A stretch of DNA of 64,000 nucleotides from a phage, in the NCBI GenBank assembly GCA_014435945.1, contig GCA_014435945.1_4088.1. One strand, given 5' to 3'. The notes under the pieces were generated by a model. It did no database searches. It had not been told where the DNA came from and worked only from the letters and a program-made list of their open reading frames with translations. This document shows, in pieces, positions 5,296 through 56,837 of this stretch. Every line of letters begins with the position of its first letter. The stretch's first letter is position 1. Made by a program: the position numbers and the translations under genes.

Positions 5296-5361
5296 TAATG
5301 TGTGGGACATTCGTCCCATACATGATATAATAATATTGTTAACAACAAAGGAGAAATACTC

Positions 5362-10973: not shown

Positions 10974-12779
10974 ATGCAATTAGATAAATTATATACTGAC
11001 GTAACAAATTTCCTAAATCAGAGCAATACTGATCTTACAAATGAAAATGCAAACAAAGATGCGAAATGCGTCAATACACACAGGGATTTACTTGCTGGTA
11101 TCCTATCTAAGCATTATTCACAAGATGTTATTCCAAAGGAGCTAATGCAGTGGCATAATGATGGTTATGGTCACATTCATGATTTAGACTACTATATCAG
11201 CCCATTAACTAACTGTTGCTTGGTTAACTACCCAGATATGCTAAAAAATGGATTTACCATTGGTTGTGCCAAAATTGAAGAACCAAAGAGTTTTAGTGTA
11301 GCATGTACAGTACTGACACAAATTGTACAAGCTGTTGCTAGTTCCCAGTACGGTGGTCAATCGTTGGCTCATATCGACGTTGGTCTTGAACCTTACGTCC
11401 AAAAGTCGTGGGATAAGCTATTAGCGAAGCAAAAGGCATATAATCTCAGTACTGAATACATTGAGGAAGAATTACGAAAAGAAGTCTATGATGGGTGTCA
11501 AACCTTACTTTACCAGACAAATTCAATGATTAGTACAAACGGACAAGCAGCATTCATTTCTCTTAGTTTAGGACTGAATACTTCAAAATTTGGAAAATTA
11601 ATCACTGAACAGTACTTAAAAGTACATGAGAATGGTTTAGGCAAAGATAAGATTACTCCAGTGTTTCCTAAAGTAATTTTCTTTTTACAGGACGGAATCA
11701 ACATGAATAGCGATGATTGCAACTATGACATGAAACAGTTGGCAATGCGTTGTGCATCGAAGAGAATCTATCCAGACTTCGTTTCTGTACCGTTAAATCA
11801 CAAAGTGACAGGAAGTAGTAGCACAGCAGTAACTCCGATGGGTTGCCGTTCATTTTTAGGAAAATGGGAAGATTCCAATGGTAATGAGCAATACAACGGT
11901 CGTTTCAACTTAGGCGTGGTTTCCATCAATTTACCACTAATTGCTCTTGAAAGTGCATCAGATGGAGATTTTTTTGATAAAATAGACGAGCATATGAATA
12001 TTGCATATCGTGCTCAGATGAACCGTGTAGAGCGTTTAAAAGGCACAAAAGCGAAGCAGAATCCAATTTTGTTCATGGAAGGTGCACTTTCACGTTTAGG
12101 GGCTGAAGAAACGATTGACAAGCTATTTTATAACGGATATGCTAGTATTAGTATTGGTTACGTTGGTTTAGTTGAATGTTCAGAAATTCTGACTGGTTCT
12201 ATCAGTAAGGAGTTCTGCATGTCAGTTCTGAATTATATGAAAGTTAAATGCGATGAGTTCAAAAAAGAGAGTAACATAGCTTTTAGTCTATATGGAACCC
12301 CAGCAGAGTCACTTTGCTACAAATTTGCACGTTGCATCGAATCTAAGTATCCTTCAGTACTAAAACGTGATTACATCACAAATTCCTTCCACCAACCAGT
12401 ATGGGTAGCAAGTTCACCATTTGATAAGTGGAGTTACGAAGAGGGTTTTGCTTACCTCAGTAATGGTGGAAACATCAGTTATGTTGAATCACCCAACCTA
12501 AGTAACAATATTCAAGCACTTGAGACTTTAGTCAATTACGCTTACACAAAGATCCCATATTTTGGTATCAACCAGCCAATTGACCAGTGTTACGAGTGTG
12601 GGTATAAAGGTGAGTTCAGTGTGGATAAACACGGTTTTCATTGTCCAGTATGTGATAATCGCAATGAGAAGACAATCTCAGTGATTCGTCGTGTTTCTGG
12701 ATATTTGGGGAACCCATCGTCTCGTGGATTCAACAAAGGCAAACAACAAGAATGTTGTGAGCGTATACAACACAAATAA
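10974..12779 (+). CDS. nrdD: anaerobic ribonucleoside-triphosphate reductase (class III)
   Basis: C-terminal glycine-radical motif RRVSGYLG and CxxC..CxxC zinc ribbon; ATG after AAGGAAAG (ORF track started at 10947). Confidence 0.9.
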   Translation: MQLDKLYTDVTNFLNQSNTDLTNENANKDAKCVNTHRDLLAGILSKHYSQDVIPKELMQWHNDGYGHIHDLDYYISPLTNCCLVNYPDMLKNGFTIGCAKIEEPKSFSVACTVLTQIVQAVASSQYGGQSLAHIDVGLEPYVQKSWDKLLAKQKAYNLSTEYIEEELRKEVYDGCQTLLYQTNSMISTNGQAAFISLSLGLNTSKFGKLITEQYLKVHENGLGKDKITPVFPKVIFFLQDGINMNSDDCNYDMKQLAMRCASKRIYPDFVSVPLNHKVTGSSSTAVTPMGCRSFLGKWEDSNGNEQYNGRFNLGVVSINLPLIALESASDGDFFDKIDEHMNIAYRAQMNRVERLKGTKAKQNPILFMEGALSRLGAEETIDKLFYNGYASISIGYVGLVECSEILTGSISKEFCMSVLNYMKVKCDEFKKESNIAFSLYGTPAESLCYKFARCIESKYPSVLKRDYITNSFHQPVWVASSPFDKWSYEEGFAYLSNGGNISYVESPNLSNNIQALETLVNYAYTKIPYFGINQPIDQCYECGYKGEFSVDKHGFHCPVCDNRNEKTISVIRRVSGYLGNPSSRGFNKGKQQECCERIQHK

Positions 12780-24771: not shown

Positions 24772-24780
24772 TATGTTATG

Positions 24781-24815
24781 ATAGGGACTTGAGAAATCGA
24801 GTCCCTATTTTTTTT
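24781..24815 (+). terminator. intrinsic terminator
   Basis: ATAGGGACT-10 nt loop-AGTCCCTAT hairpin followed by T7; GGAG and ATG follow directly. Confidence 0.75.
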
Positions 24816-24826
24816 GGAGAAAATAA

Positions 24827-25581: not shown

Positions 25582-25601
25582 CGGGACATAACACATCCTA
25601 G

Positions 25602-25610
25602 TGATATAAT
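25602..25610 (+). promoter_or_regulatory. extended -10 promoter element (TGATATAAT)
   Basis: TGnTATAAT; same 9-mer recurs at 36899, 40505, 52848 and 55908. Confidence 0.45.
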
Positions 25611-25887
25611 GTATATTGTAAAATGACAACGGACATTGAAAAATGGATAATGAGAACCTACTTCTCTTGAAAATGTAAAGGATAGATGAGCTTTACCGTT
25701 GTAGCGAACAGCAAAAGAAACCTGTTAGAGTACTGGCAATCAAACAAACACGAGATAAGACCACGAATCACGGCGACACGGCTGTATAAAGAACTCCAAT
25801 AAGCACACAGAGAGTTCCTAGATAGATGTATAAGGTTCGCACCTTACGAATTTGCTAAGGGAGTTCAAGGATTGTGGACGCGATTTT

Positions 25888-25916
25888 ACAAGAAAGTTGC
25901 GTCCAAAATTTGAGAA
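25888..25916 (+). repeat. direct repeat copy 1 (core CGTCCAAAATTTGAGAA)
   Basis: ACAAGAAAGTTGCGTCCAAAATTTGAGAA; 17-nt core identical to copy at 26053. Confidence 0.7.
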
Positions 25917-26040
25917 CAGGTACTACTTTGATCGAATAGAGTTTAGTACTGAGTGCTGTTGATGAAAAGACCAGCGACCGTTGCATATGACTGCGATAGA
26001 GAGAAACCGAGCAACCCGCTTTCGCTCTCTAAATTTTGGT

Positions 26041-27171: not shown

Positions 27172-27178
27172 AATATAT

Positions 27179-27208
27179 GGAGAGTCATTGTGACTCTCCT
27201 TTTCTTTT
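27179..27208 (+). terminator. intrinsic terminator
   Basis: GGAGAGTCA-ttg-TGACTCTCC followed by TTTTCTTTT then GGAG. Confidence 0.75.
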
Positions 27209-27219
27209 GGAGAATATAT

Positions 27220-30922: not shown

Positions 30923-31314
30923 TTATGAGATGGCGTAAACGACATGTAACAAGATTTAATAAAATAATCAAAAAGTATTTCTCGCATAAGTTAGATCCAA
31001 TCATACTTCAACTAAGAAGTAGTATGTTTGATAGACGTTTCCCACAGTGTTTAGAATCGTACAGTCGTAAACGTTACAAGAATGAATACCTGGTATATCG
31101 TTATGATTTATCAGAATTCTTTTTGAATACTCGTGTATCTGTACCCATCAGACTGTACTCAAGGGTAAAACGAAGTAGGGTCCAAGATATCACTTATGGT
31201 TATCTTATGCTTGAGATTAATGAACTCAATGAAAAAACAGGTAGAAATTTCAGTACTTTATGTCTGGAAAACAATGATATCATAAAAAGAATTATAGAAG
31301 ATTTGGGCAAGTAG
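30919..31314 (+). CDS. hypothetical basic protein
   Basis: 131 aa, Arg/Lys-rich. Confidence 0.45.
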   Translation: MIMRWRKRHVTRFNKIIKKYFSHKLDPIILQLRSSMFDRRFPQCLESYSRKRYKNEYLVYRYDLSEFFLNTRVSVPIRLYSRVKRSRVQDITYGYLMLEINELNEKTGRNFSTLCLENNDIIKRIIEDLGK

Positions 31315-31343
31315 GATTTTTTATGCTATAATTGGAGATGAGT

Positions 31344-34577: not shown

Positions 34578-34588
34578 TATATAATAAA

Positions 34589-34620
34589 GGGACAGAGATA
34601 ATTCTGTCCCTTTTCTTTTT
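34589..34620 (+). terminator. intrinsic terminator
   Basis: GGGACAGA-gataat-TCTGTCCC followed by TTTTCTTTTT then GGAG. Confidence 0.75.
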
Positions 34621-34630
34621 GGAGTACATT

Positions 34631-34810
34631 ATGAATGCAGTACTGATATTTTTAATGTGTGTGGTATTTGGTGCTTTTGGTCTATTCGTAATTTTAGATA
34701 CTGAACCTAGTACTGAAGTAGGTACAACCATTACACTTAAACCTGGTGTTAAAATTAATGATACCTATTGCTACAATCCAAACATAAACCGTTATGAGAT
34801 TTGTTTATGA
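34631..34810 (+). CDS. small membrane protein (hypothetical)
   Basis: ATG 7 nt after GGAG; N-terminal TM helix. Confidence 0.4.
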   Translation: MNAVLIFLMCVVFGAFGLFVILDTEPSTEVGTTITLKPGVKINDTYCYNPNINRYEICL

Positions 34811-36874: not shown

Positions 36875-36898
36875 AAGCTGGGACAAGTTAACATCTTC

Positions 36899-36907
36899 TG
36901 ATATAAT
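36899..36907 (+). promoter_or_regulatory. extended -10 promoter element (TGATATAAT)
   Basis: TGATATAAT 43 nt upstream of the Nudix ATG. Confidence 0.4.
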
Positions 36908-38162: not shown

Positions 38163-38173
38163 AATATAAATTA

Positions 38174-38203
38174 AGGACTCTGATTACAGAGTCCTTTCTT
38201 TTC
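38174..38203 (+). terminator. intrinsic terminator
   Basis: AGGACTCTG-atta-CAGAGTCCT followed by TTCTTTTC then GGAG. Confidence 0.75.
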
Positions 38204-38213
38204 GGAGAATATA

Positions 38214-49408: not shown

Positions 49409-50920
49409 ATGGATAATTTTTTCAGTACTGAAACTACCACAGTACCTAATGGATATGTATATACTTCTCACACTGGTGGCAAATATGTATTTCTTGAAGG
49501 TTTCTGGTTTAACGACAATAATATGTTAATGGTAGACCCTAAAAAATACCCATCCATGTACGCAAGTGCTCGACAACAGATTGTTGAGCACAATCTATCT
49601 TCTAGTGAATATAAAATTGGTAACAAATATATTCTTGAAGGTAAAGAGTGTACATTTCTTGGTGAAAATCGTTTCAATTCTAAAGATGGAATTCTACTAA
49701 CTGAAAGTGAAATTATCACTGAACTAATGGCAGATGACCACCGTGTATATAATGTTTCAAAAGAAACTCTACAAAAAGAATGGAACTCCCTAAAATTCTA
49801 TATCCTTCCACCATATGCTGATGATATTTCTATTCCAGCAGGTATGGAAGTTAGTGGATTTAAATTCATCCCTAAAAATCACCGTTTTGTTGATGCAAAA
49901 TCTGGACGTCCAGTTGATCCAGCAATGACCCGTAAACTTTCCGATGAAGGTATGCGTATTGCTCGCCAATTAGCACCAAAAAACAAACTAATTCCAATTA
50001 AATCTACTTTAGTACAAGGCAATACTCGTTCCGAATGGAATGGTAAAGAATTTTGTGATAATGATGGTAATGTTGTAATTCCAGAACAAAATGCACATGT
50101 AATCTTTAATGCATATCAGCAATTTGTTAAGGCTAACCCTGGTGATTTTCCTTCACTAACTGGTGAACATGAATCAGGTGAACAACGTTTTGGTTCAGGT
50201 GAAAAGCCAGAACAACCTAAACAACCAGTAAAACAGCCAGTATTCGCAACAAAAGAATCCATTAATGAAGCAGATGAAGAGATTGAAGAAACTGAATCTG
50301 TTGTGGTTCCAAATGGTTACCGCATTACTTCAAATAAAGGTAAAACATACATTAAACAAAAAGATGCATGGTTTGATGTAGAAACTAAAAAACAACTAAA
50401 TGTTAGTGCTGCAAAAAGTGTTGAACGTGCTGCTCAACGTGATATAATTCGCCATAACAGTTCTGGTGCAATGAAAATCGGAACTAAAGTAAAATCTAAG
50501 AAAGGCACAGAGTATTCTTATATCGGTGGTAACCGCTTTATTAGTGCTGATGGTAAATTGATTCCAAAATCAACTGCTGATAACATTCTTGCTCGTTATG
50601 ATGCAGAACGTGCTGATAAGAAAGAAGAAGAACCTGAAGAGAAAGTAGATGCTGAAGTATCAAGTACTGATGTAGTTGAGCCAAAAGCTGAACCTACTAA
50701 AGAACCAGAACCTGTTGCAGAGCCAGAACCTGAAGTTCCTGCTGCTGGGGATGAAGTTCAATCATTAGCTTCACGAATTAAAGAATCACCTTACGCTAAG
50801 AAAATTACAGTACTCTTAACGCGTGGTGATGAGGTTTCTCTAATTGCTGCTGACATTTTACTATCTGGTAAAAAGGATGAAACAGTGCAAATTTTAAAAT
50901 CATTAAATAAGAATGATTGA
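49409..50920 (+). CDS. hypothetical protein with internal ~90-aa duplication
   Basis: ATG after AAGGAGA; VPNGYVYTSHTGGKY ... and VVPNGYRITSNKGKTY ... repeat units; acidic C-terminal region. Confidence 0.55.
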   Translation: MDNFFSTETTTVPNGYVYTSHTGGKYVFLEGFWFNDNNMLMVDPKKYPSMYASARQQIVEHNLSSSEYKIGNKYILEGKECTFLGENRFNSKDGILLTESEIITELMADDHRVYNVSKETLQKEWNSLKFYILPPYADDISIPAGMEVSGFKFIPKNHRFVDAKSGRPVDPAMTRKLSDEGMRIARQLAPKNKLIPIKSTLVQGNTRSEWNGKEFCDNDGNVVIPEQNAHVIFNAYQQFVKANPGDFPSLTGEHESGEQRFGSGEKPEQPKQPVKQPVFATKESINEADEEIEETESVVVPNGYRITSNKGKTYIKQKDAWFDVETKKQLNVSAAKSVERAAQRDIIRHNSSGAMKIGTKVKSKKGTEYSYIGGNRFISADGKLIPKSTADNILARYDAERADKKEEEPEEKVDAEVSSTDVVEPKAEPTKEPEPVAEPEPEVPAAGDEVQSLASRIKESPYAKKITVLLTRGDEVSLIAADILLSGKKDETVQILKSLNKND

Positions 50921-50942: not shown

Positions 50943-51935
50943 ATGGCTAAAAAAATTAATGAAGCACAAGTTAAAATCGATATCGCAGGTCTAGAATCTG
51001 AAGATCTAGAAACACTATCTCGTATGCTTGCATTAGCTGGTCAAGCAGAGCGTCAAGCTTCTCCTGTTGCTGCTCCAGTTCCTTCTATGGGGTCTATGAC
51101 CCCTTCTCTACCACCAATCGCTCCACTCGACATGGATTCCATTGGTGCGGGTGCTGAAGAAGAAGTTGGTGGTACAATGGATGGTGCGATTGATGCACCA
51201 GTTGAAGACCCATTGGAAGTAGCTGCTGACTCACTATCTGCTGAAGCTGGTGATTTTGGTGGTGATTCTGAAGAAGTAAGTATGGATGCAGAGTTCGAAG
51301 AGCCTGGTGTTGCAGATGAAGAAGAGTTTTCTTTAGATCTTTCCGGTCAACCTCAACTAGAATCAGTTGAAGAAGAGGAAGAAGAAGAAGAAATCATCGA
51401 AGAAGAATTCGATTTCAGTCGTATGCTATCTCTAGCTGGTCTTCAAGACGAACCAGAAGATGAATATTCAGTAGAAGGTAACCCAGATACTGAAGTTAAA
51501 GTTGAAGAAAACACTTTCCTACCAGACCTAACCATCTCTGAAGATGAAGAACAAGGTGACAGTACTGATTTTGGTCCTTACAACACTGAAGCTGATGCTG
51601 TTCGTGACGGTCAAGCTAAAACTAATGGTGTAGAAGGTGACCACTTTGTTGTTATTACCAAGGGTAACAAGTTCTACTGGAGACGTGTCGTTGATGAAGA
51701 TGTTGACAATCGTCCTGAACCAGAGTACTATGACAATGACGGTAACGAGAACCGTGTTCACAAATTTGAACCTAAGTTTCCAGGTACTGCTCTAGGTGAC
51801 AACCCACTCAATGTTAATGAGAGTGATGAGTCAGTGGAAGGTAACGAAGAACTAGAAGATGAAAGCGATGAAGAAGTCGAAGACATTTTCGAAAGTCTCC
51901 AGAAGAAATATCAACAATTTCTAGGGGACAAATAA
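50943..51935 (+). CDS. highly acidic protein (hypothetical)
   Basis: 330 aa, long Glu/Asp runs (EEEEEEEEIIEEE). Confidence 0.5.
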   Translation: MAKKINEAQVKIDIAGLESEDLETLSRMLALAGQAERQASPVAAPVPSMGSMTPSLPPIAPLDMDSIGAGAEEEVGGTMDGAIDAPVEDPLEVAADSLSAEAGDFGGDSEEVSMDAEFEEPGVADEEEFSLDLSGQPQLESVEEEEEEEEIIEEEFDFSRMLSLAGLQDEPEDEYSVEGNPDTEVKVEENTFLPDLTISEDEEQGDSTDFGPYNTEADAVRDGQAKTNGVEGDHFVVITKGNKFYWRRVVDEDVDNRPEPEYYDNDGNENRVHKFEPKFPGTALGDNPLNVNESDESVEGNEELEDESDEEVEDIFESLQKKYQQFLGDK

Positions 51936-51936
51936 G

Positions 51937-52329
51937 ATGGGATATAATTATCGTGAATTGGTTGAAGCATTAGATGAAATCACTTCTAGTGAAGAATCTA
52001 CTGAAGAAGAAAGTTTTGCAGTTGAGACTCCTTCTGATGCTGTTGCCACCGATTTACTTAAAGATATCACCGAATGCCTTATCCACATTGTGGATAAGGT
52101 TAAATCAGGTGAAGATCAAAAAGAAATCGTAGAAAAGCTTCAAAAAGCGTGTGACATTTTATCGGATGTTCGATATAATGATGAAAGTACTGAAGAAGTT
52201 GATGAATCCACTGATTGCTGCTTCGGAACCAAAGATATGGGTCCGAAAATTGGTAAAGATGGTGTCCAAGACTATAAAGTTAAAGATGCTCCTTCATATG
52301 CAGCAAGACAGGGTTTCGTGGGGATGTAA
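51937..52329 (+). CDS. hypothetical acidic protein
   Basis: 130 aa. Confidence 0.45.
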   Translation: MGYNYRELVEALDEITSSEESTEEESFAVETPSDAVATDLLKDITECLIHIVDKVKSGEDQKEIVEKLQKACDILSDVRYNDESTEEVDESTDCCFGTKDMGPKIGKDGVQDYKVKDAPSYAARQGFVGM

Positions 52330-52332
52330 TTT

Positions 52333-52710
52333 ATGATTCCTGAACCACACAACAGTACTGAATTTCAAAACGATGTACTTTTAAAAGTTAGAGAAGTACA
52401 TGGATCAGACGCTGAATTAACAGACCGTATGCTTCTGATGTCAATTTTTGAAAATTTCAGAACTGGCGGTGGTTTAAGACTTAGCAAGTTTGGATATACA
52501 ATTTGTAAAGAAAACATTCTTTATGAATTTACAAAAATCCCCTTGCAAAGAGAGTTCAAAAGTTCTATAATCTTTACATCGCTTGATAGGATATGTACTT
52601 CACCCTACTATGTAGAAGGGCAGTACATATACCTCTCGGACGCAATGATAGTTACAGAGTTAACATTGTGTGGTGATGATTTTAGAATGTTATTTTCGAT
52701 GCACATGTAG
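52333..52710 (+). CDS. hypothetical protein
   Basis: 125 aa. Confidence 0.45.
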   Translation: MIPEPHNSTEFQNDVLLKVREVHGSDAELTDRMLLMSIFENFRTGGGLRLSKFGYTICKENILYEFTKIPLQREFKSSIIFTSLDRICTSPYYVEGQYIYLSDAMIVTELTLCGDDFRMLFSMHM

Positions 52711-52736
52711 CTTCGAAAATAAAGAAAAAAAAGATG

Positions 52737-52764
52737 TTGACAACGCCGAATGATGTGTTATAAT
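52737..52764 (+). promoter_or_regulatory. sigma70-type promoter P1 (tandem copy 1)
   Basis: TTGACA, 16-nt spacer, TGtTATAAT (extended -10); ~40-nt unit repeated at 52829. Confidence 0.6.
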
Positions 52765-52828
52765 GACCACCACGAAGCAAGTTTTCAAAATCACAAGATG
52801 TGAGATTGAAAAAGAAATAAAAAAGTTG

Positions 52829-52856
52829 TTGACAAGCCTGAACGATGTGATATAAT
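52829..52856 (+). promoter_or_regulatory. sigma70-type promoter P2 (tandem copy 2)
   Basis: TTGACA, 16-nt spacer, TGaTATAAT; near-identical to P1. Confidence 0.6.
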
Positions 52857-52919
52857 GACCACATCAAGACGGCAAAGAGAAATGCCTTTTTAAATACACG
52901 GATGATTCATGAAGTAACA

Positions 52920-52960
52920 AAGGAACTGATAAGTTAAAAATTCTTTTAACACAGTTCCTT
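52920..52960 (+). other. long nested hairpin followed by T-rich tract (attenuator/terminator-like)
   Basis: AAGGAACTG ... CAGTTCCTT outer stem enclosing GTTAAAA-attc-TTTTAAC; followed by TACTTTTG. Confidence 0.5.
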
Positions 52961-52987
52961 TACTTTTGCCCACGGATTGGCTATAAT
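52959..52987 (+). promoter_or_regulatory. possible third promoter (weak -35)
   Basis: TTTACT, 17-nt spacer, TATAAT; 41 nt upstream of the MoxR ATG. Confidence 0.35.
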
Positions 52988-53027
52988 AGAAACCTAAACG
53001 ATTTTATCCAACAAAAGGAAAATATAC

Positions 53028-54356
53028 ATGTCTACTCAAAACAACGATATCCTGAACGTAAAACTGACTCCTAAGAAAGCTAAAGAAGCAATGGCACTGG
53101 CTGACATGATTCAAGATAGCCTGATGATTTGGGGTAGCCCTGGTATCGGTAAATCTGCCATCGCACGTCAATACGCTGATGAGAACTACCCACTGCGTAA
53201 AGATAACGTGGCAAAAATTGAGTTCATGAAACAACAAATCGAAGCTGATACTGAAAATGCTGATCAACTTCGCCGTGAACTGGCAGCGTTTGAAGCCAAA
53301 CTAATCGACCAAGACACTAACTTTATCGATTTCCGTTTGTCTCAGATTGAACCAAGTGACCTTCGCGGTATCCCAGTTCCAGAGAAAGTGTTCCTTGATA
53401 TGGATGGTAAGCAACTGATTGAATCTGAACTGGCTAGTGCACAAGATTACATCGCTGAAACAGCAGTTGTGTGGGCAGCACCTAAAGTACTGAAACTGTC
53501 TCCAGATTGGAAAGGTGTTATTCTGTTTGACGAAATCAACTCTGCAATGCCGATTGTACAGGCAGCGTCTTATCAGCTAATCCTCGACCGTTGTGTTGGT
53601 GAGATGAAGCTACCTAAGACTGCACTGATTCTCGCAGCAGGTAACCGTGAAACTGATGGCGGTGTAACGTTCTCTCTAGCTACACCACTGCGTGACCGTA
53701 TGACCCACATCGAAATGATTCCTTATCATCAAGATTGGATTAACGATTATGCGATTGGTAAGCGTTTGAACCCAGCAACTGTAGCGTTCATCAACAACAC
53801 TGGTGCTAAACACTTCAACACCCTTAGCCCACAAGATCCTTCTCACTGTGGTGGTACTTCTCCACGTTCATGGGAAGCAGTAGCACGCTACGAAGATCTG
53901 AAGAAAGTTAAGAACATTGATAAAGAAGTGTTCCGTGCGATGATTGCAGGTCGTGTTGGTGAAGGCGTAGCAACTGAATACATCGAGTATGTTGATAACG
54001 TAGCTAAACTACCAGATACCATGTCCATCCTACAGGGTGAGATTAAAGAGATTGATGCTTCGCTTGATATTTCCGCGAACTACTTCATCACTCTGAATCT
54101 GGTTTACAAAATTATCGACCTCTACAATGAGAAGCAAGAACAACGTCTACCAGTGGAAGATTGGGGTAAGCTGTGCAACAACTTCATCACCTTCCTAGAC
54201 CATAACTTCTCTGCAACTCAAGCAGAACTGGCAGTACTGGCGATTCGTACCATCACGCTTCATAAAGTAGCGATTACGATTAAAGATGTACCAGCGTTTA
54301 AAGACTTCGTTATGAAGTACTCTGACCTAGTACGTAAAGCACGCTCTCTTGGTTAA
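53028..54356 (+). CDS. MoxR-like AAA+ ATPase
   Basis: Walker A WGSPGIGKS, Walker B ILFDEIN; size and pattern of MoxR/CbbQ-type ATPases. Confidence 0.8.
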   Translation: MSTQNNDILNVKLTPKKAKEAMALADMIQDSLMIWGSPGIGKSAIARQYADENYPLRKDNVAKIEFMKQQIEADTENADQLRRELAAFEAKLIDQDTNFIDFRLSQIEPSDLRGIPVPEKVFLDMDGKQLIESELASAQDYIAETAVVWAAPKVLKLSPDWKGVILFDEINSAMPIVQAASYQLILDRCVGEMKLPKTALILAAGNRETDGGVTFSLATPLRDRMTHIEMIPYHQDWINDYAIGKRLNPATVAFINNTGAKHFNTLSPQDPSHCGGTSPRSWEAVARYEDLKKVKNIDKEVFRAMIAGRVGEGVATEYIEYVDNVAKLPDTMSILQGEIKEIDASLDISANYFITLNLVYKIIDLYNEKQEQRLPVEDWGKLCNNFITFLDHNFSATQAELAVLAIRTITLHKVAITIKDVPAFKDFVMKYSDLVRKARSLG

Positions 54357-54380
54357 TAATTAAAAAGAGTGTTGACAAGG

Positions 54381-54406
54381 AGGATACCACATGGTATCCT
54401 TCTTTT
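54381..54406 (+). terminator. intrinsic terminator
   Basis: AGGATACC-acat-GGTATCCT followed by TCTTTT. Confidence 0.6.
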
Positions 54407-54431
54407 ATCTTAACTAAACGAGGAAATACAA

Positions 54432-55841
54432 ATGTCAGATAAACGTTTCAGTGATGTTACTCCGGCTCTCCAGAAAGAATGTCAAGATCGTCTGATCTTA
54501 GCTCGAACATCTTTAATGCTAACATTCCCATTCTTTGGTGTACTGGCTTCTCGTCTGCGTCCAGTTGCAAACAACACATGGTGTCGTACTTTGGCTGTAG
54601 ATGGTAAGCATTTATTCTACAACGTAGAATTCATCATGGGTATTCAGGACCAATCCAAAAAGTCAGCATACGAAGAAGCAATTCGTGAGAAACATCCTGA
54701 AGTAACTGAAGAACAACTTAAAGAAATGACAGAAGGTTTGACTGATGAAAACCTGATTGCAGTTATTTGTCATGAAATTCTTCACTGTGCATATGACCAC
54801 TTCTTGCGTCGTGGTATGCGTGACCCGCAGCGTTATAACCGTGCTGCTGACTATGCAATTAACCAGATTCTTGTTCGTGATAAAATTGGTAAAATCCAAA
54901 GCCAATGGCTGTACGATAAAAAGTACGATGGTATGACTGCTGAAGAGATTTATAACATTCTCGAAGAAGAAGATAAACAGGATCAAGACGGGGAAGGTGA
55001 AGGAAATCCACAGGCTGGTAGTGGTGAGGGTGAAGGTAAATCACGCGGTACTTTTGGTGATATCAAAGATGGTAAAGGCAAAGGTACAACAATCGACCAG
55101 CATGACGTTCCACAAGAAGGTCAAGAAGGTGGTTCAAGTGATAAACAAAAACGTGATTATATGGATGATTTCAAAACAGCAATGATGAATGCTGCTCGTG
55201 CAGGTGGTACTCCTGCTGAAATCGCACGTATGATTAACAACTTCAAAGAACCTAAGATTGACTGGCGTTCCAAACTTCACCGCACACTGCGTAGCTGGTT
55301 GAAGTCTGATGCAACTTATCAAAATCCTAATCGTCGTTCATGGGGTGCTGGTTTTGGTAGTTCTGGTTCATTCTACGGGAATCCAATCTTCCCTGGTATG
55401 AAACCAGATGATGATATTGATATTGCAATTGCACTAGATGCATCCGGTTCTATCTCTGAAGATATGCTCCGTGATTTCATCAGTGAAGTACTGGGTATCA
55501 CTAAGCAGTTTAAACAATTTAAAATCCGTATCATGACGTTCGATACTGAAGTTTATACTGTTAAAGATTACAAAACTGGTGAAGAGAGTAAGATTCTCGA
55601 ATATCCAGTGAAAGGTGGTGGTGGTACTGACTTTGAAGCAGTATGGGTTCATATGAAGCATGACAACTATAAGCCTAAACAGCTTATTATGTTTACCGAT
55701 GGTGAGCCGTGGCAGTCATGGGGTGATCCTGATTACTGTAAGACACTGTTTGTTATCCACAGTAATCCTAACAAACAAGCACCATTTGGCGAAACTGTAC
55801 ACTACGAATATGAAGCTGACAAAAAGCGTCAACGTAGCTAA
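54432..55841 (+). CDS. von Willebrand factor A domain protein with N-terminal metallopeptidase-like domain
   Basis: HEILHCAYDH (HExxH) in N-terminal half; C-terminal MIDAS motif DIAIALDASGS; Gly/Glu-rich linker. Confidence 0.7.
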   Translation: MSDKRFSDVTPALQKECQDRLILARTSLMLTFPFFGVLASRLRPVANNTWCRTLAVDGKHLFYNVEFIMGIQDQSKKSAYEEAIREKHPEVTEEQLKEMTEGLTDENLIAVICHEILHCAYDHFLRRGMRDPQRYNRAADYAINQILVRDKIGKIQSQWLYDKKYDGMTAEEIYNILEEEDKQDQDGEGEGNPQAGSGEGEGKSRGTFGDIKDGKGKGTTIDQHDVPQEGQEGGSSDKQKRDYMDDFKTAMMNAARAGGTPAEIARMINNFKEPKIDWRSKLHRTLRSWLKSDATYQNPNRRSWGAGFGSSGSFYGNPIFPGMKPDDDIDIAIALDASGSISEDMLRDFISEVLGITKQFKQFKIRIMTFDTEVYTVKDYKTGEESKILEYPVKGGGGTDFEAVWVHMKHDNYKPKQLIMFTDGEPWQSWGDPDYCKTLFVIHSNPNKQAPFGETVHYEYEADKKRQRS

Positions 55842-55853
55842 GTACTAAATAAT

Positions 55854-55885
55854 GAGAACGGAAAATTCCGTTCTCTACTTTTTTC
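55854..55885 (+). terminator. intrinsic terminator
   Basis: GAGAACGG-aaaatt-CCGTTCTC followed by TACTTTTTTC. Confidence 0.75.
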
Positions 55886-55907
55886 AGCGGGACAGCTTGG
55901 AAAAAGG

Positions 55908-55916
55908 TGATATAAT
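55908..55916 (+). promoter_or_regulatory. extended -10 promoter element (TGATATAAT)
   Basis: TGATATAAT 35 nt upstream of the 55951 ATG. Confidence 0.4.
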
Positions 55917-55950
55917 TATATTTGTAACAACATACATGGAGAGTATTAAA

Positions 55951-56181
55951 ATGGAACAAGAACCAGAAAAAATTCAACTAACCCTAATCGACCTAATCAA
56001 CGCTGCTAAAATCATGGAAGCTGCTGTTGCTCGTAATTCATTTAAAGTCGAAGAACTTGTTGATGTTGCTCCAGTCGTATCTAAGTTTGTTGAGTTTGCT
56101 AACTCTGCACTCGAAGATATCAAAGCACAAGAAGAAGCTGATGCTGCACAAGCTGCTGCTGAACAAAATAAAGGAGAATAA
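55951..56181 (+). CDS. hypothetical acidic protein
   Basis: ATG after GGAGAG; 76 aa (ORF track started upstream at 55852). Confidence 0.45.
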   Translation: MEQEPEKIQLTLIDLINAAKIMEAAVARNSFKVEELVDVAPVVSKFVEFANSALEDIKAQEEADAAQAAAEQNKGE

Positions 56182-56183
56182 TA

Positions 56184-56837
56184 ATGGCTATTCGTCACGT
56201 TGGTGTAGTACGTAATACGGGTTCACGAGTATTTGTGGTATGGCGTTCACTCCCTGATGATCCAGAACATTGTCTCATTGTTTATCGCGACTCACTTCCT
56301 GAAGCATATGCTCAATCTGTTGCAGATTTAGTAATGAATCAAGGTCAATCGAATGTAGATTTGTGGGAAGTTATGCATAAGATTGGTCATCTAGACGGTC
56401 GCAAAATGCTAGATGTTCTTCATAATCTACAACATTTGCGTCGTGCACGTACTTGTGATATTGATATGCATGTTGGTGGAAACAGTAAGATTTCTCTTGA
56501 TGTTCTAAACACCGCAATCAATGATAATGATGCTAAAAAACATGAAGATGGTAAAGTTAAAGAATACAACCCATTCAAGCCACAAGAAGTTGATACTTCT
56601 GTTGAAGAAGCTACCATTGTTGAGCAACTACTTAAAGATGCACAACGTTATGAGCAGTTGGCTAAAGAGCACTTTGAACGTGCTTACAACTTAGAACCAT
56701 CTCTACGTCCACAAGTTCAAGCAACACCTGTAGCACCTGATAGCAAAACTTTCTATATTGAAATCCCAGAAGGAATTTCACAAACCAAAGCAATTGAGAA
56801 AGTTAAACAGGCATTTGCTGAACGTAAAGCAAAATAA
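56184..56837 (+). CDS. hypothetical protein
   Basis: 217 aa. Confidence 0.5.
   Translation: MAIRHVGVVRNTGSRVFVVWRSLPDDPEHCLIVYRDSLPEAYAQSVADLVMNQGQSNVDLWEVMHKIGHLDGRKMLDVLHNLQHLRRARTCDIDMHVGGNSKISLDVLNTAINDNDAKKHEDGKVKEYNPFKPQEVDTSVEEATIVEQLLKDAQRYEQLAKEHFERAYNLEPSLRPQVQATPVAPDSKTFYIEIPEGISQTKAIEKVKQAFAERKAK

Follow-up and report, generated by a model that had tools for sequence, protein, structure and literature searches.

A conserved two-hairpin RNA leader precedes the MoxR-class ATPase and metallopeptidase-like VWA gene pair of a RaK2-like jumbo coliphage

Introduction

What does a gene pair for a MoxR-class AAA+ ATPase and a VWA protein with a metallopeptidase-like domain do for a virulent phage, when during infection is it made, and what sets its level? 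The question is raised by positions 52,711 to 55,885 of a stretch of 64,000 nucleotides (nt) of phage DNA (GenBank assembly GCA_014435945.1, contig GCA_014435945.1_4088.1), which was analysed as a whole and is called the window below. It comes from a jumbo coliphage of the 121Q/RaK2-like (Asteriusvirus) type; over 52300-56200 it shares 99.9% identity with Escherichia phage Turkey3 and about 87% with phages 121Q, PBECO4, G17 and phAPEC6. An earlier note, made from the letters alone, had described here a two-gene unit behind duplicated promoters and a long hairpin. That observation as a whole was confirmed by the analysis reported here, and the interpretation given with it is partly supported.

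The note was correct in stating that the role of the pair in phages is not established, yet the pair itself is no open discovery. The annotations of phages RaK2 and Muenster cite gp24 and gp25 of phage N4 as its homologs, the record of phAPEC6 labels the orthologs 'MoxR ATPase' and 'N4 gp25-like', and a tblastn search with the VWA protein gave matches in 651 phage records (RaK2-like, N4-like, rV5/FV3-like and PA5oct-like), N4 gp25 being found with E = 7e-19 and 25% identity over 94% of the query. In N4-like phages, gp24 and gp25 are within the 14 core genes, with unknown function, and in N4 they are middle transcripts (Chan et al. 2014, PMC4193335). A MoxR ATPase with a metallopeptidase-fused vWA partner was also described for jumbo phages of group 2.2, with the proposal, from domain content alone, that it serves the assembly and processing of virions (Iyer et al. 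2021, PMC7824862). The latter pair (ASV44729.1, ASV44728.2) can be likened to that of the window by description and is most likely the same gene pair, although the published account contains no regulatory leader. Such a leader, formed by two RNA hairpins, is the previously undescribed part of the locus, and is a clade-specific example of a familiar type of element. The positions of all features are collected in Table 1.

The ATPase and its VWA partner

Both open reading frames (ORFs) are exactly where the earlier note placed them. The VWA gene begins 75 nt 3' of the ATPase gene, and the order ATPase-VWA is kept at every locus examined, including all Rak2-like loci, N4, FV3, a PA5oct-like phage and a megaphage contig.

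The ATPase is a member of phrog_1297 (E = 3e-105). In an alignment of 21 sequences the Walker A motif GSPGIGKS (G36, G39, K42, S43) and the Walker B motif ILFDE (D168, E169) are invariant, as are N206 (AAGNR), R224 (PLxxR) and R280 (SPRSW), which from their alignment positions may be read as sensor 1, arginine finger and sensor 2, respectively. A search of 5.8 billion proteins returned close relatives that have no Pfam call, and homologs of 31-34% identity (E = 1e-52 to 1e-62) that carry AAA_5, AAA_3 and bpMoxR; among the 21 aligned homologs, AAA_5 matched in eight, AAA_3 in seven and bpMoxR in five. When the 21-sequence profile was compared with solved structures, the sole significant match was the AAA_5-type domain of midasin (E = 1.6e-6), and single-sequence searches of the PDB gave noise only. 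With an AlphaFold (AF2) model of the ATPase (pLDDT 84.8), the top Foldseek match was NorQ from the 2026 NorQ-NorD complexes (E = 8e-7, target TM 0.60), followed by CbbQ2 (6l1q); 9qh8, 9qh4 and 9qhd were matched at E of about 1e-6. The Pfam families of the homologs, the midasin profile match and the NorQ and CbbQ2 model matches place the protein in the MoxR/AAA_5 clade, of which it is a divergent branch, MoxR-type in a broad sense, with two lineage-specific inserts. The claim of MoxR-type Walker A and B motifs is thus borne out by invariant motifs, homolog families and model matches, and by Pfam transitively.

The inserts are seen in the ATPases of the jumbo phages. The first, of about 45 amino acids (aa), is helical and coiled-coil-like and follows directly on the Walker A helix (53190-53320; residues ~55-97), and the second spans about 15-20 aa (~53385-53445; residues ~120-140). 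Both are missing from the shorter homologs of 370-405 aa, which are the ones that score on AAA_5. N4 gp24 (an AAA ATPase) and gp25 (a vWFA protein), with their orthologs, are direct homologs of the pair in the same gene order; compared with them, the jumbo-phage ATPase is some 90 aa longer due to the helical insert after Walker A and the second insert, and the VWA protein has about 40 extra aa after its first beta region as well as a longer acidic/Gly linker.

For the VWA protein, Pfam gives matches above threshold, with DUF2201_N (PF13203) at 125.8 bits against a cut-off of 23.2 (E = 3.2e-36) and the DUF2201 VWA-like domain at E = 1e-21. The two domains are connected by a disordered, acidic/Gly linker, and the VWA domain has a Rossmann-like fold. 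In 21 homologs, down to 43% identity, the HExxH motif (H114, E115, H118) is invariant together with C119 and H123, and so is a complete MIDAS (D336-A-S338-G-S340, T399, D423). These matches and residues bear out what had been claimed of HExxH and a MIDAS-type VWA domain, and profile searches thus put both proteins in the families that had been named for them, not in unrelated ones. The N-terminal domain is a putative peptidase on account of the HExxH motif and the Pfam family.

Homologs of the DUF2201_N/VWA protein are labelled 'HNH endonuclease' or 'homing endonuclease' in many GenBank records and in PHROG 1314, and in phage Deifobo the same label was put on the ATPase as well. No HNH family was detected in the DUF2201_N/VWA protein, and the label appears to be a propagated mis-annotation.

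The two-hairpin leader

Regions upstream of the ATPase gene were compared for 19 distinct lineages, consisting of phages of E. coli, Klebsiella, Salmonella, Erwinia, Serratia, Xanthomonas, Cronobacter and Yersinia as well as metagenomic relatives; 17 leaders, from at least six host genera, can be aligned. All 17 have the same order of elements: promoter, A-y-GGA-w site, hairpin 1, a C/U-rich tract ending in UUUUG, hairpin 2, about 40 nt, the Shine-Dalgarno sequence and ATG.

Hairpin 1 of the window has a folding free energy (dG) of -15.4 kcal/mol (z = -4.7), and none of 200 shuffled sequences folds equally well, so that the nested hairpin with its T-rich tail (ACTTTTG), as seen by the earlier note, is well founded. 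With RNAalifold, hairpin 1 alone gave nine pairs, three of them with compensatory changes (e.g. GC in nine sequences versus AU in seven), and 95% of the alignment cells are paired. Hairpin 2 carries GGA in its loop in all 17 leaders, on stems of 3-8 bp (mostly 4-6) with varying sequences; in the window phage it is thermodynamically weak (dG -3.2, z = -0.4), and three of its five pairs show double changes. For both helices taken together, 92% of the cells are paired, against 21-53% with slid partners, and six pairs have double changes (26 cells); the covariation score was reached by none of 500 shuffles, a control that related sequences can beat without any structure. In comparison with G17, identity is 95-96% in the segments between hairpin 1 and hairpin 2 and between hairpin 2 and the ATG (96% in the latter), which is the level of codon positions 1 and 2 of the ATPase gene (95-97%) and far above that of position 3 (77%).

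Hairpin 1 could also simply terminate the upstream structural operon, with the promoters read through and with hairpin 2 and the GGA motifs incidental, in which case the leader would be over-interpreted here. The hairpin is similar to the units of hairpin, T-tract and Shine-Dalgarno sequence that are common between the cistrons of this genome, hairpin 2 is energetically negligible in the window phage, and kinship alone can exceed shuffle controls. On the other hand, the promoter precedes the terminator in every lineage examined, the reverse of the usual order; hairpin 2 covaries and slid partners pair poorly; and the stretch from hairpin 1 to the ATG is conserved to the level of codon positions 1 and 2, beyond the need of a plain terminator. 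We consider a mere terminator of the upstream genes improbable.

A covariance model finds the leader element with 61.5 bits, and elsewhere only partial, terminator-like matches of at most 38 bits. No second full copy was found in the window, in 50 kb of the Turkey3 early region or in a 12-kb PA5oct locus. The element is absent 5' of the homologous ATPase gene in N4, in FV3 and in the PA5oct-like phage Deifobo, which makes it specific for the clade and not tied to the protein family. Xanthomonas phage XaC1 keeps hairpin 1 and the tract and lacks hairpin 2. Rfam 15 gave no match in the whole window, the best score in a permissive scan of the leader being 23 bits against a gathering score of 60, and in the G17 record hairpin 1 is flagged as a terminator by ARNold.

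Of the interpretations given in the earlier note, strong early expression with attenuation is the best supported, in view of the early signature of promoter P2 (see below) and the conserved, covarying leader hairpin, and the two-hairpin leader probably limits how much of the pair is made. It resembles lambda PR'-tR' and leader attenuators in that, 5' of the genes, the distance from a strong sigma-70 promoter to a stable hairpin with U-tract is no more than ~40-100 nt. It differs from these systems by the second, GGA-loop hairpin after the U-tract, and a qut-like site, an antiterminator, a conserved leader peptide and an alternative antiterminator fold were not found in the window leader. For hairpin 1, neither a conserved alternative antiterminator pairing nor a trans factor was identified.

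Some other candidates were considered, and most were rejected. Two mini-ORFs at 52903-52920, ATG-ATT-…-TAA (11 codons) and ATG-AAG-TAA (2 codons), overlap hairpin 1, and leaders of other genera have no ATG there, which speaks against a conserved leader peptide. A hairpin around the upstream GGA and a long-range GGAUGA/UUAUCC pairing, the latter from a single-sequence fold, were inconsistent across relatives. The CUCUUUU tract may resemble an antitermination site of the boxA/nut type; the E. coli lineage has UACUUUU instead.

The earlier note had also thought of small RNAs. If the main function of the leader were that of a small-RNA gene, P2 (or, in other genera, the only promoter) and hairpin 1 with its U-tract would delimit a terminated, trans-acting RNA of ~75-105 nt, and the ATPase mRNA would come from read-through or from a proximal 'third' promoter. 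In each of the 17 leaders a complete transcription unit is made up of the promoter, ~40-60 conserved nt with the A-y-GGA-w site, and the terminator hairpin with its U-tract; conservation is 89% from P2 to hairpin 1 and 95% in the hairpin core, and RNA sequencing of PA5oct revealed that relatives make abundant non-coding RNAs (PMC7318152). However, the high conservation does not stop at the terminator but runs on via hairpin 2 as far as the start codon, which is what a leader acting in cis would show. The element moreover occurs solely 5' of one gene, the third promoter lacks conservation, complementarity to a target was not identified, and a matching Rfam family is absent. A predominantly trans-acting function is rated as rather unlikely. 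The PA5oct transcript ncRNA003 was considered as an equivalent of the leader transcript and rejected, as it is located at 103 kb beside YomR-like and structural genes, not beside the pair.

The invariance of the GGA motifs suggests a further possibility, i.e. that the leader is a platform for a GGA-recognizing RNA-binding protein, either host CsrA/RsmA or a phage factor, which would control translation or termination from the A-y-GGA-w site 5' of hairpin 1, the loop of hairpin 2 and, in some lineages, the Shine-Dalgarno sequence. CsrA is known to recognize GGA in the loop of a short hairpin, and all hosts concerned are known to encode CsrA/RsmA. The leader shares with CsrA/RsmA-bound leaders a GGA in the loop of a short hairpin and an upstream site that fits A-N-GGA; the window sequence AUACACGGAUGA matches 10 of 12 positions of the consensus RUACARGGAUGU obtained by systematic evolution of ligands by exponential enrichment (SELEX). 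The loop GGA is kept in every aligned leader despite the changing stems, and the second site is present in 16 of them. In contrast to CsrA/RsmA-bound leaders, only two or three sites are present and the GGA of the Shine-Dalgarno sequence is conserved in some lineages only; the leader of 165 nt holds four GGA copies where base composition predicts about 1.7, which is no clear enrichment; XaC1 lacks hairpin 2; and GGA could also be part of the spacer in the third promoter, which is lineage-specific. Binding of such a protein as the main function of the leader thus has a low probability. Somewhat less doubtful, but still tentative, is the broader proposal that the two-hairpin leader and its A-y-GGA-w site form a cis-regulatory RNA family, specific for RaK2-like phages, that senses either CsrA/RsmA or a phage antiterminator and so times the expression of the pair. 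If this is true, the leader family would give an experimental handle on a pair that has matches in more than 650 phage records, N4 among them, and that has gone without an assigned function for two decades.

Promoters and expected timing

Promoters P1 and P2 both match the consensus at 12 of 12 positions and have a 16-nt spacer, a TG-extended -10 box and an A-rich upstream tract. The exact pattern TTGACA-N13-TGnTATAAT occurs in the 64 kb at P1 and P2 alone; when one mismatch is allowed three matches are found, against 0.12 expected, and none of 100 shuffles attains three. The two promoters are copies 1 and 2 of a 54-nt direct repeat, 81% identical and 92 nt apart, so that the claim of tandem, near-identical promoters holds. 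The emphasis that was put on this duplication was nevertheless misplaced, since among the lineages sampled the doubling is confined to E. coli phages and the repeats are the least conserved part of the leader (74-80% identity to G17, the P1 unit 74%); the -10 box of P1 is TACAAT in G17 and 121Q. P2 occupies the place of the single promoter of the other genera, which is usually GGGACA-N-TGTGATATAAT or an extended -10 box alone.

The first 21 kb of Turkey3 contain some 20 consensus sigma-70 promoters 5' of tiny ORFs, with as signature an A-rich tract, TTGACA, TATAAT, then acATCAAGACG and a small GC hairpin. This set looks like the early-promoter family of the phage; examples (Turkey3 positions 1-21000) are at 12243, 15929, 16200 and 19053, and the extended signature includes AGTACTG in the spacer and, after TATAAT, ACATCAAG(A/G)(C/G)G followed by a GC-rich 5' hairpin. 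P2 bears the early-family signature ATCAAGACG and the 5' hairpin. Both P1 and P2 use the TG-extended -10 box of the GGGACA class, which is also present 5' of the next gene at 55889-55916. The combination of the TG-extended -10 box with the early signature of P2 makes them hybrids of the two sigma-70-like classes of the phage. The related jumbo phage PA5oct depends on the host RNA polymerase and has TTGAC/TATAATA promoters (PMC7318152). Read from the promoter sequences, these features support strong early or middle transcription of the pair by the host polymerase.

The GGGACA class itself, GGGACA-N13/14-TGATATAAT, is distinct from the TTGACA early class and was seen in the window at 5303-5331, 25582-25610, 36879-36907 and 55889-55916, with a GGGCAA variant at 31304-31332. 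It is conserved 5' of the gene that follows the VWA gene, precedes the ATPase gene itself in the Munch-like lineages of Salmonella phages, and may be a middle-class promoter that requires a phage factor. Downstream of the GGGACA/TGATATAAT site at 25582, a region of 361 nt (25582-25942) without an ORF of at least 70 aa precedes a minus-strand gene; this region, in which Rfam has no match, may encode a non-coding RNA.

The third, weaker promoter of the earlier note is present as a sequence with a 10/12 match, yet it overlaps the conserved hairpin elements, and outside the E. coli, Klebsiella and Hallingskeid lineages its -10 box (TATAAT or TATCAT) is not conserved. A rearranged leader was observed in phage EJP2 (positions 2212-2529 of its locus, L006), in which an extended -10 promoter and hairpin 1 come first and the GGA hairpin last, with an early-type promoter (TTGACA-17-TATAAT, ATCAAGACG signature) inserted between them; promoter modules thus move within the leader.

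Hairpins between and after the genes

A strong hairpin that the earlier note had overlooked is located between the two genes (54377-54404; dG -17.5 kcal/mol, z = -5.0). A hairpin with a T-run of unrelated sequence is found at the same place in 14 of the 19 lineages, and in phages Muenster and Munch it is annotated as a terminator. The hairpin that closes the operon (dG -14.2, z = -5.2) is annotated as a terminator in G17, Muenster and Munch, and a strong hairpin follows the VWA gene in all 19 lineages. The description as a terminator-bounded two-gene unit is therefore right as to the strong 3' terminator and incomplete in that a strong terminator-like hairpin also separates the genes.

The inter-gene hairpin is of the same type as other intercistronic units of the window, which are stereotyped and consist of hairpin, T-tract, GGAG and start codon between plus-strand genes (24772-24826, 27172-27219, 34578-34632, 38163-38213). 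Their recurrence suggests that partial termination, or processing of the mRNA, is widespread between cistrons. In the ribosome-binding region of the next gene (55933-55952; start codon at 55953) the relatives examined have a near-invariant palindrome, ATACATGGAGTGTAT, which reads ACATACATGGAGAGTATT here and suggests a conserved translational operator or structure.

Proposed role of the pair

On balance we lean towards an early or middle operon that encodes a NorQ/CbbQ-like AAA+ motor and a MIDAS adaptor-peptidase for the remodelling of a target, with the leader as attenuator and a partial terminator inside the operon. The two genes would then encode a core machine of the phage in which a hexameric MoxR-class motor of the NorQ/CbbQ type is partnered by a VWA-MIDAS adaptor fused to a zinc-metallopeptidase-like domain. 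By analogy to NorQ-NorD and CbbQ-CbbO, the VWA protein would dock on the ATPase ring and its MIDAS would grip the target protein, after which ATP hydrolysis would remodel the target or the adaptor linker; the HExxH domain may cut the target. The host sigma-70 RNA polymerase would transcribe the genes from the early/middle-type promoters, which are doubled in the lineage of the window. Hairpin 1 with its U-tract, followed by the GGA hairpin, would act as an attenuator or otherwise regulated leader, so that only a fraction of the transcripts reaches the ATPase gene, and the partial terminator between the genes would give more ATPase than VWA partner, which would fit the stoichiometry of a hexamer and its adaptor.

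The NorQ-NorD pair, a chaperone for metal insertion into nitric oxide reductase, and the Rubisco activase CbbQ-CbbO share with the phage pair the two-gene architecture of an ATPase and a VWA-MIDAS protein. In NorQD, a finger of the VWA protein enters the AAA+ pore and the linker is remodelled (PMC13036017). The phage ATPase has only 12-15% sequence identity to NorQ and CbbQ, and its helical C-terminal region of ~200 aa and the inserts are not covered by these chains of 255-270 residues. Nothing ties the phage pair to insertion of a metal cofactor. To our knowledge, an N-terminal HExxH peptidase-like domain as in the phage VWA protein is not among the domains of NorD or CbbO. As compared to the window phage, N4 uses its own RNA polymerase II for middle genes, and it lacks the leader element.

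Several observations besides the possible plain-terminator function of hairpin 1 weigh against the remodelling operon that we favour. The window ATPase itself remains under the Pfam gathering scores for AAA_3 and AAA_5: AAA_3 scores 17.9 bits, below the cut-off of 27, AAA scores 21.5 bits and AAA_5 gives no match. For the N-terminal domain of the VWA protein a match is absent among the solved structures listed, for which reason its peptidase activity is a putative one. Hairpin 1 is followed by an interrupted U-tract (ACUUUUG in the window, CUCUUUUG or UUCUUUUUUG in relatives), so termination at this site may be weak. In five of the 19 lineages the genes are separated by a spacer of 14-21 nt without hairpin, which implies that control of stoichiometry at this place is not essential. 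Finally, the structural genes upstream and the detection of the ATPase in virions of phAPEC6 are more in keeping with late morphogenesis than with an early or middle function.

The last point leads to the proposal of Iyer et al. (2021, PMC7824862), according to which the pair would be a chaperone and protease for virion assembly that folds or assembles, and processes, structural proteins. Its function would effectively be late, and the promoter-proximal terminator would in that case delay expression until a phage antitermination factor is available, as with lambda PR'-tR'. For the MoxR/VWA pair p618/p892 of Acidianus two-tailed virus (ATV), which lacks the peptidase domain, a role in tail development was proposed (PMC7824862). 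In RaK2, Serratia BF, Hallingskeid and XaC1, the genes directly 5' of the pair have a virion structural annotation, with conserved synteny, and the phAPEC6 ATPase ortholog gp265c was found in purified virions by mass spectrometry, with six peptides and 19% coverage (PMC7247149, Table 1). The two upstream genes of the window (50943-51935 and 49409-50920) encode extremely acidic, low-complexity proteins with long E/D runs, of which the homologs in RaK2, 121Q and Serratia BF are annotated as virion structural. The architecture also fits, a strong constitutive promoter closely followed by a terminator being that of Q-type antitermination.

Against a late function, gp24 and gp25 of N4 are middle and not late transcripts, the promoters are of the early/extended -10 class that also serves the nucleotide-metabolism block downstream, and the pair is located 1.6 kb upstream of thymidylate synthase here and adjoins dCTP deaminase in N4. 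The VWA partner, phAPEC6 gp264c, was not detected in the virions, and no antiterminator was identified. The virion list of phAPEC6 further includes thymidylate synthase and a 25-kDa product of the gene that matches window positions 56184-56837; the ATPase and these two proteins are either packaged non-structural proteins or carry-over, and the presence of thymidylate synthase indicates that the ATPase may have been carried over. Evidence on the target points both ways, with structural neighbours and virion detection on the one side and nucleotide-metabolism neighbours and middle N4 transcripts on the other. A late assembly function deserves consideration, although we regard it as doubtful.

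The earlier note had called MoxR-VWA pairs chaperone-like or conflict-associated. The pair could be made early against a host immune component, or could be a conflict system carried by the phage. The promoters are of the early type, the peptidase domain could cut a host protein, and MoxR-vWA pairs are reported to be cores of some bacterial conflict systems (PMC8195603). However, PADLOC gave no family match for either protein at E <= 0.01, so that nothing in the analysis supports a role in defence or conflict, and NCBIfam gave no meaningful match for the pair. In addition, the pair is a strictly conserved core gene set in N4-like phages, is also present in Rak2-like, rV5-like and PA5oct-like phages of many hosts, and has stable synteny; such broad and strict conservation is typical of housekeeping functions and not of counter-defence genes with fast turnover. 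The conflict association is thus unsupported, and an anti-defence function is considered very unlikely.

The range of the pair among large phages is apparently widened by a metagenome scaffold of 481 kb from ENA, which carries a distant ATPase/DUF2201 pair. It also encodes a T4 Gp23-like capsid protein, T4 RNA ligase, ClpP, a 5'-3' exonuclease and a tRNA synthetase, and apparently is a megaphage. A cellular context had been considered for the distant homolog P0120, but its large contig is itself a huge phage and thus tells nothing of a function in cells.

Features of the region

Table 1 Features of the operon and its leader (positions in the window)
Feature	Position	Strand	Details
P1 unit	52717..52770	+	A-rich tract; -35 TTGACA 52737-42; 16-nt spacer with TG; -10 TATAAT 52759-64
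Small hairpin 3' of P1	52782..52812	+	TTTTCAAAATCACA / TGTGAGATTGAAAA; inverted repeat I4; dG -9.8, z = -2.4; weak
P2 unit	52809..52862	+	A-rich tract; -35 TTGACA 52829-34; TG-extended -10 TATAAT 52851-56
Predicted P2 transcript start	52863..52886	+	ATCAAGACG motif, then small hairpin GGCA..TGCC (52871-52886)
Conserved GGA	52900..52902	+	Context A-y-GGA-w, between promoter and hairpin 1; GTA in lineage L022
Hairpin 1 with ACTTTTG tract	52919..52968	+	Arms 52919-28 and 52952-61, nested inner stem; terminator-like
'Third promoter'	52959..52987	+	TTTACT-17-TATAAT, no TG; overlaps hairpin 1 tail and hairpin 2
Hairpin 2	52968..52981	+	Short stem (CCA/TGG here); GGA loop 52974-76
Shine-Dalgarno sequence of ATPase gene	53015..53019	+	AAGGA, read from sequence
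MoxR-class AAA+ ATPase gene	53028..54356	+	442 aa; N4 gp24 homolog
Inter-gene terminator-like hairpin with T-rich tail	54377..54411	+	AAGGAGGATACC-ACAT-GGTATCCTTCTT; 12 pairs
DUF2201_N-VWA gene	54432..55841	+	469 aa; HExxH…H metallopeptidase-like domain, linker, VWA with MIDAS; N4 gp25 homolog
Operon-closing intrinsic terminator	55854..55884	+	GAGAACGGAAAATTCCGTTCTC + TACTTTTTT; hairpin 55854-55875 and T-run

Implications

The MoxR-type ATPase and its peptidase-VWA partner are among the few genes that are common to very different groups of virulent phages, i.e. the N4-like podophages, where they belong to the core, the rV5-like myophages, and the PA5oct-like and RaK2-like jumbo phages. The use of host promoters of early/middle type instead of a late-type signal, the likeness to NorQ/NorD and CbbQ/CbbO, and the conserved, covarying leader narrow the hypotheses towards a remodelling or maturation enzyme that would be produced ahead of DNA metabolism or together with it, and make a morphogenetic factor of purely late type less likely. 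The gain is modest, since the proteins were described before, promoter-proximal attenuators are familiar, and the substrate is not revealed by the analysis. Its main value is that it provides defined regulatory elements that can be mutated, together with a sharper hypothesis for a widespread core module of phages.

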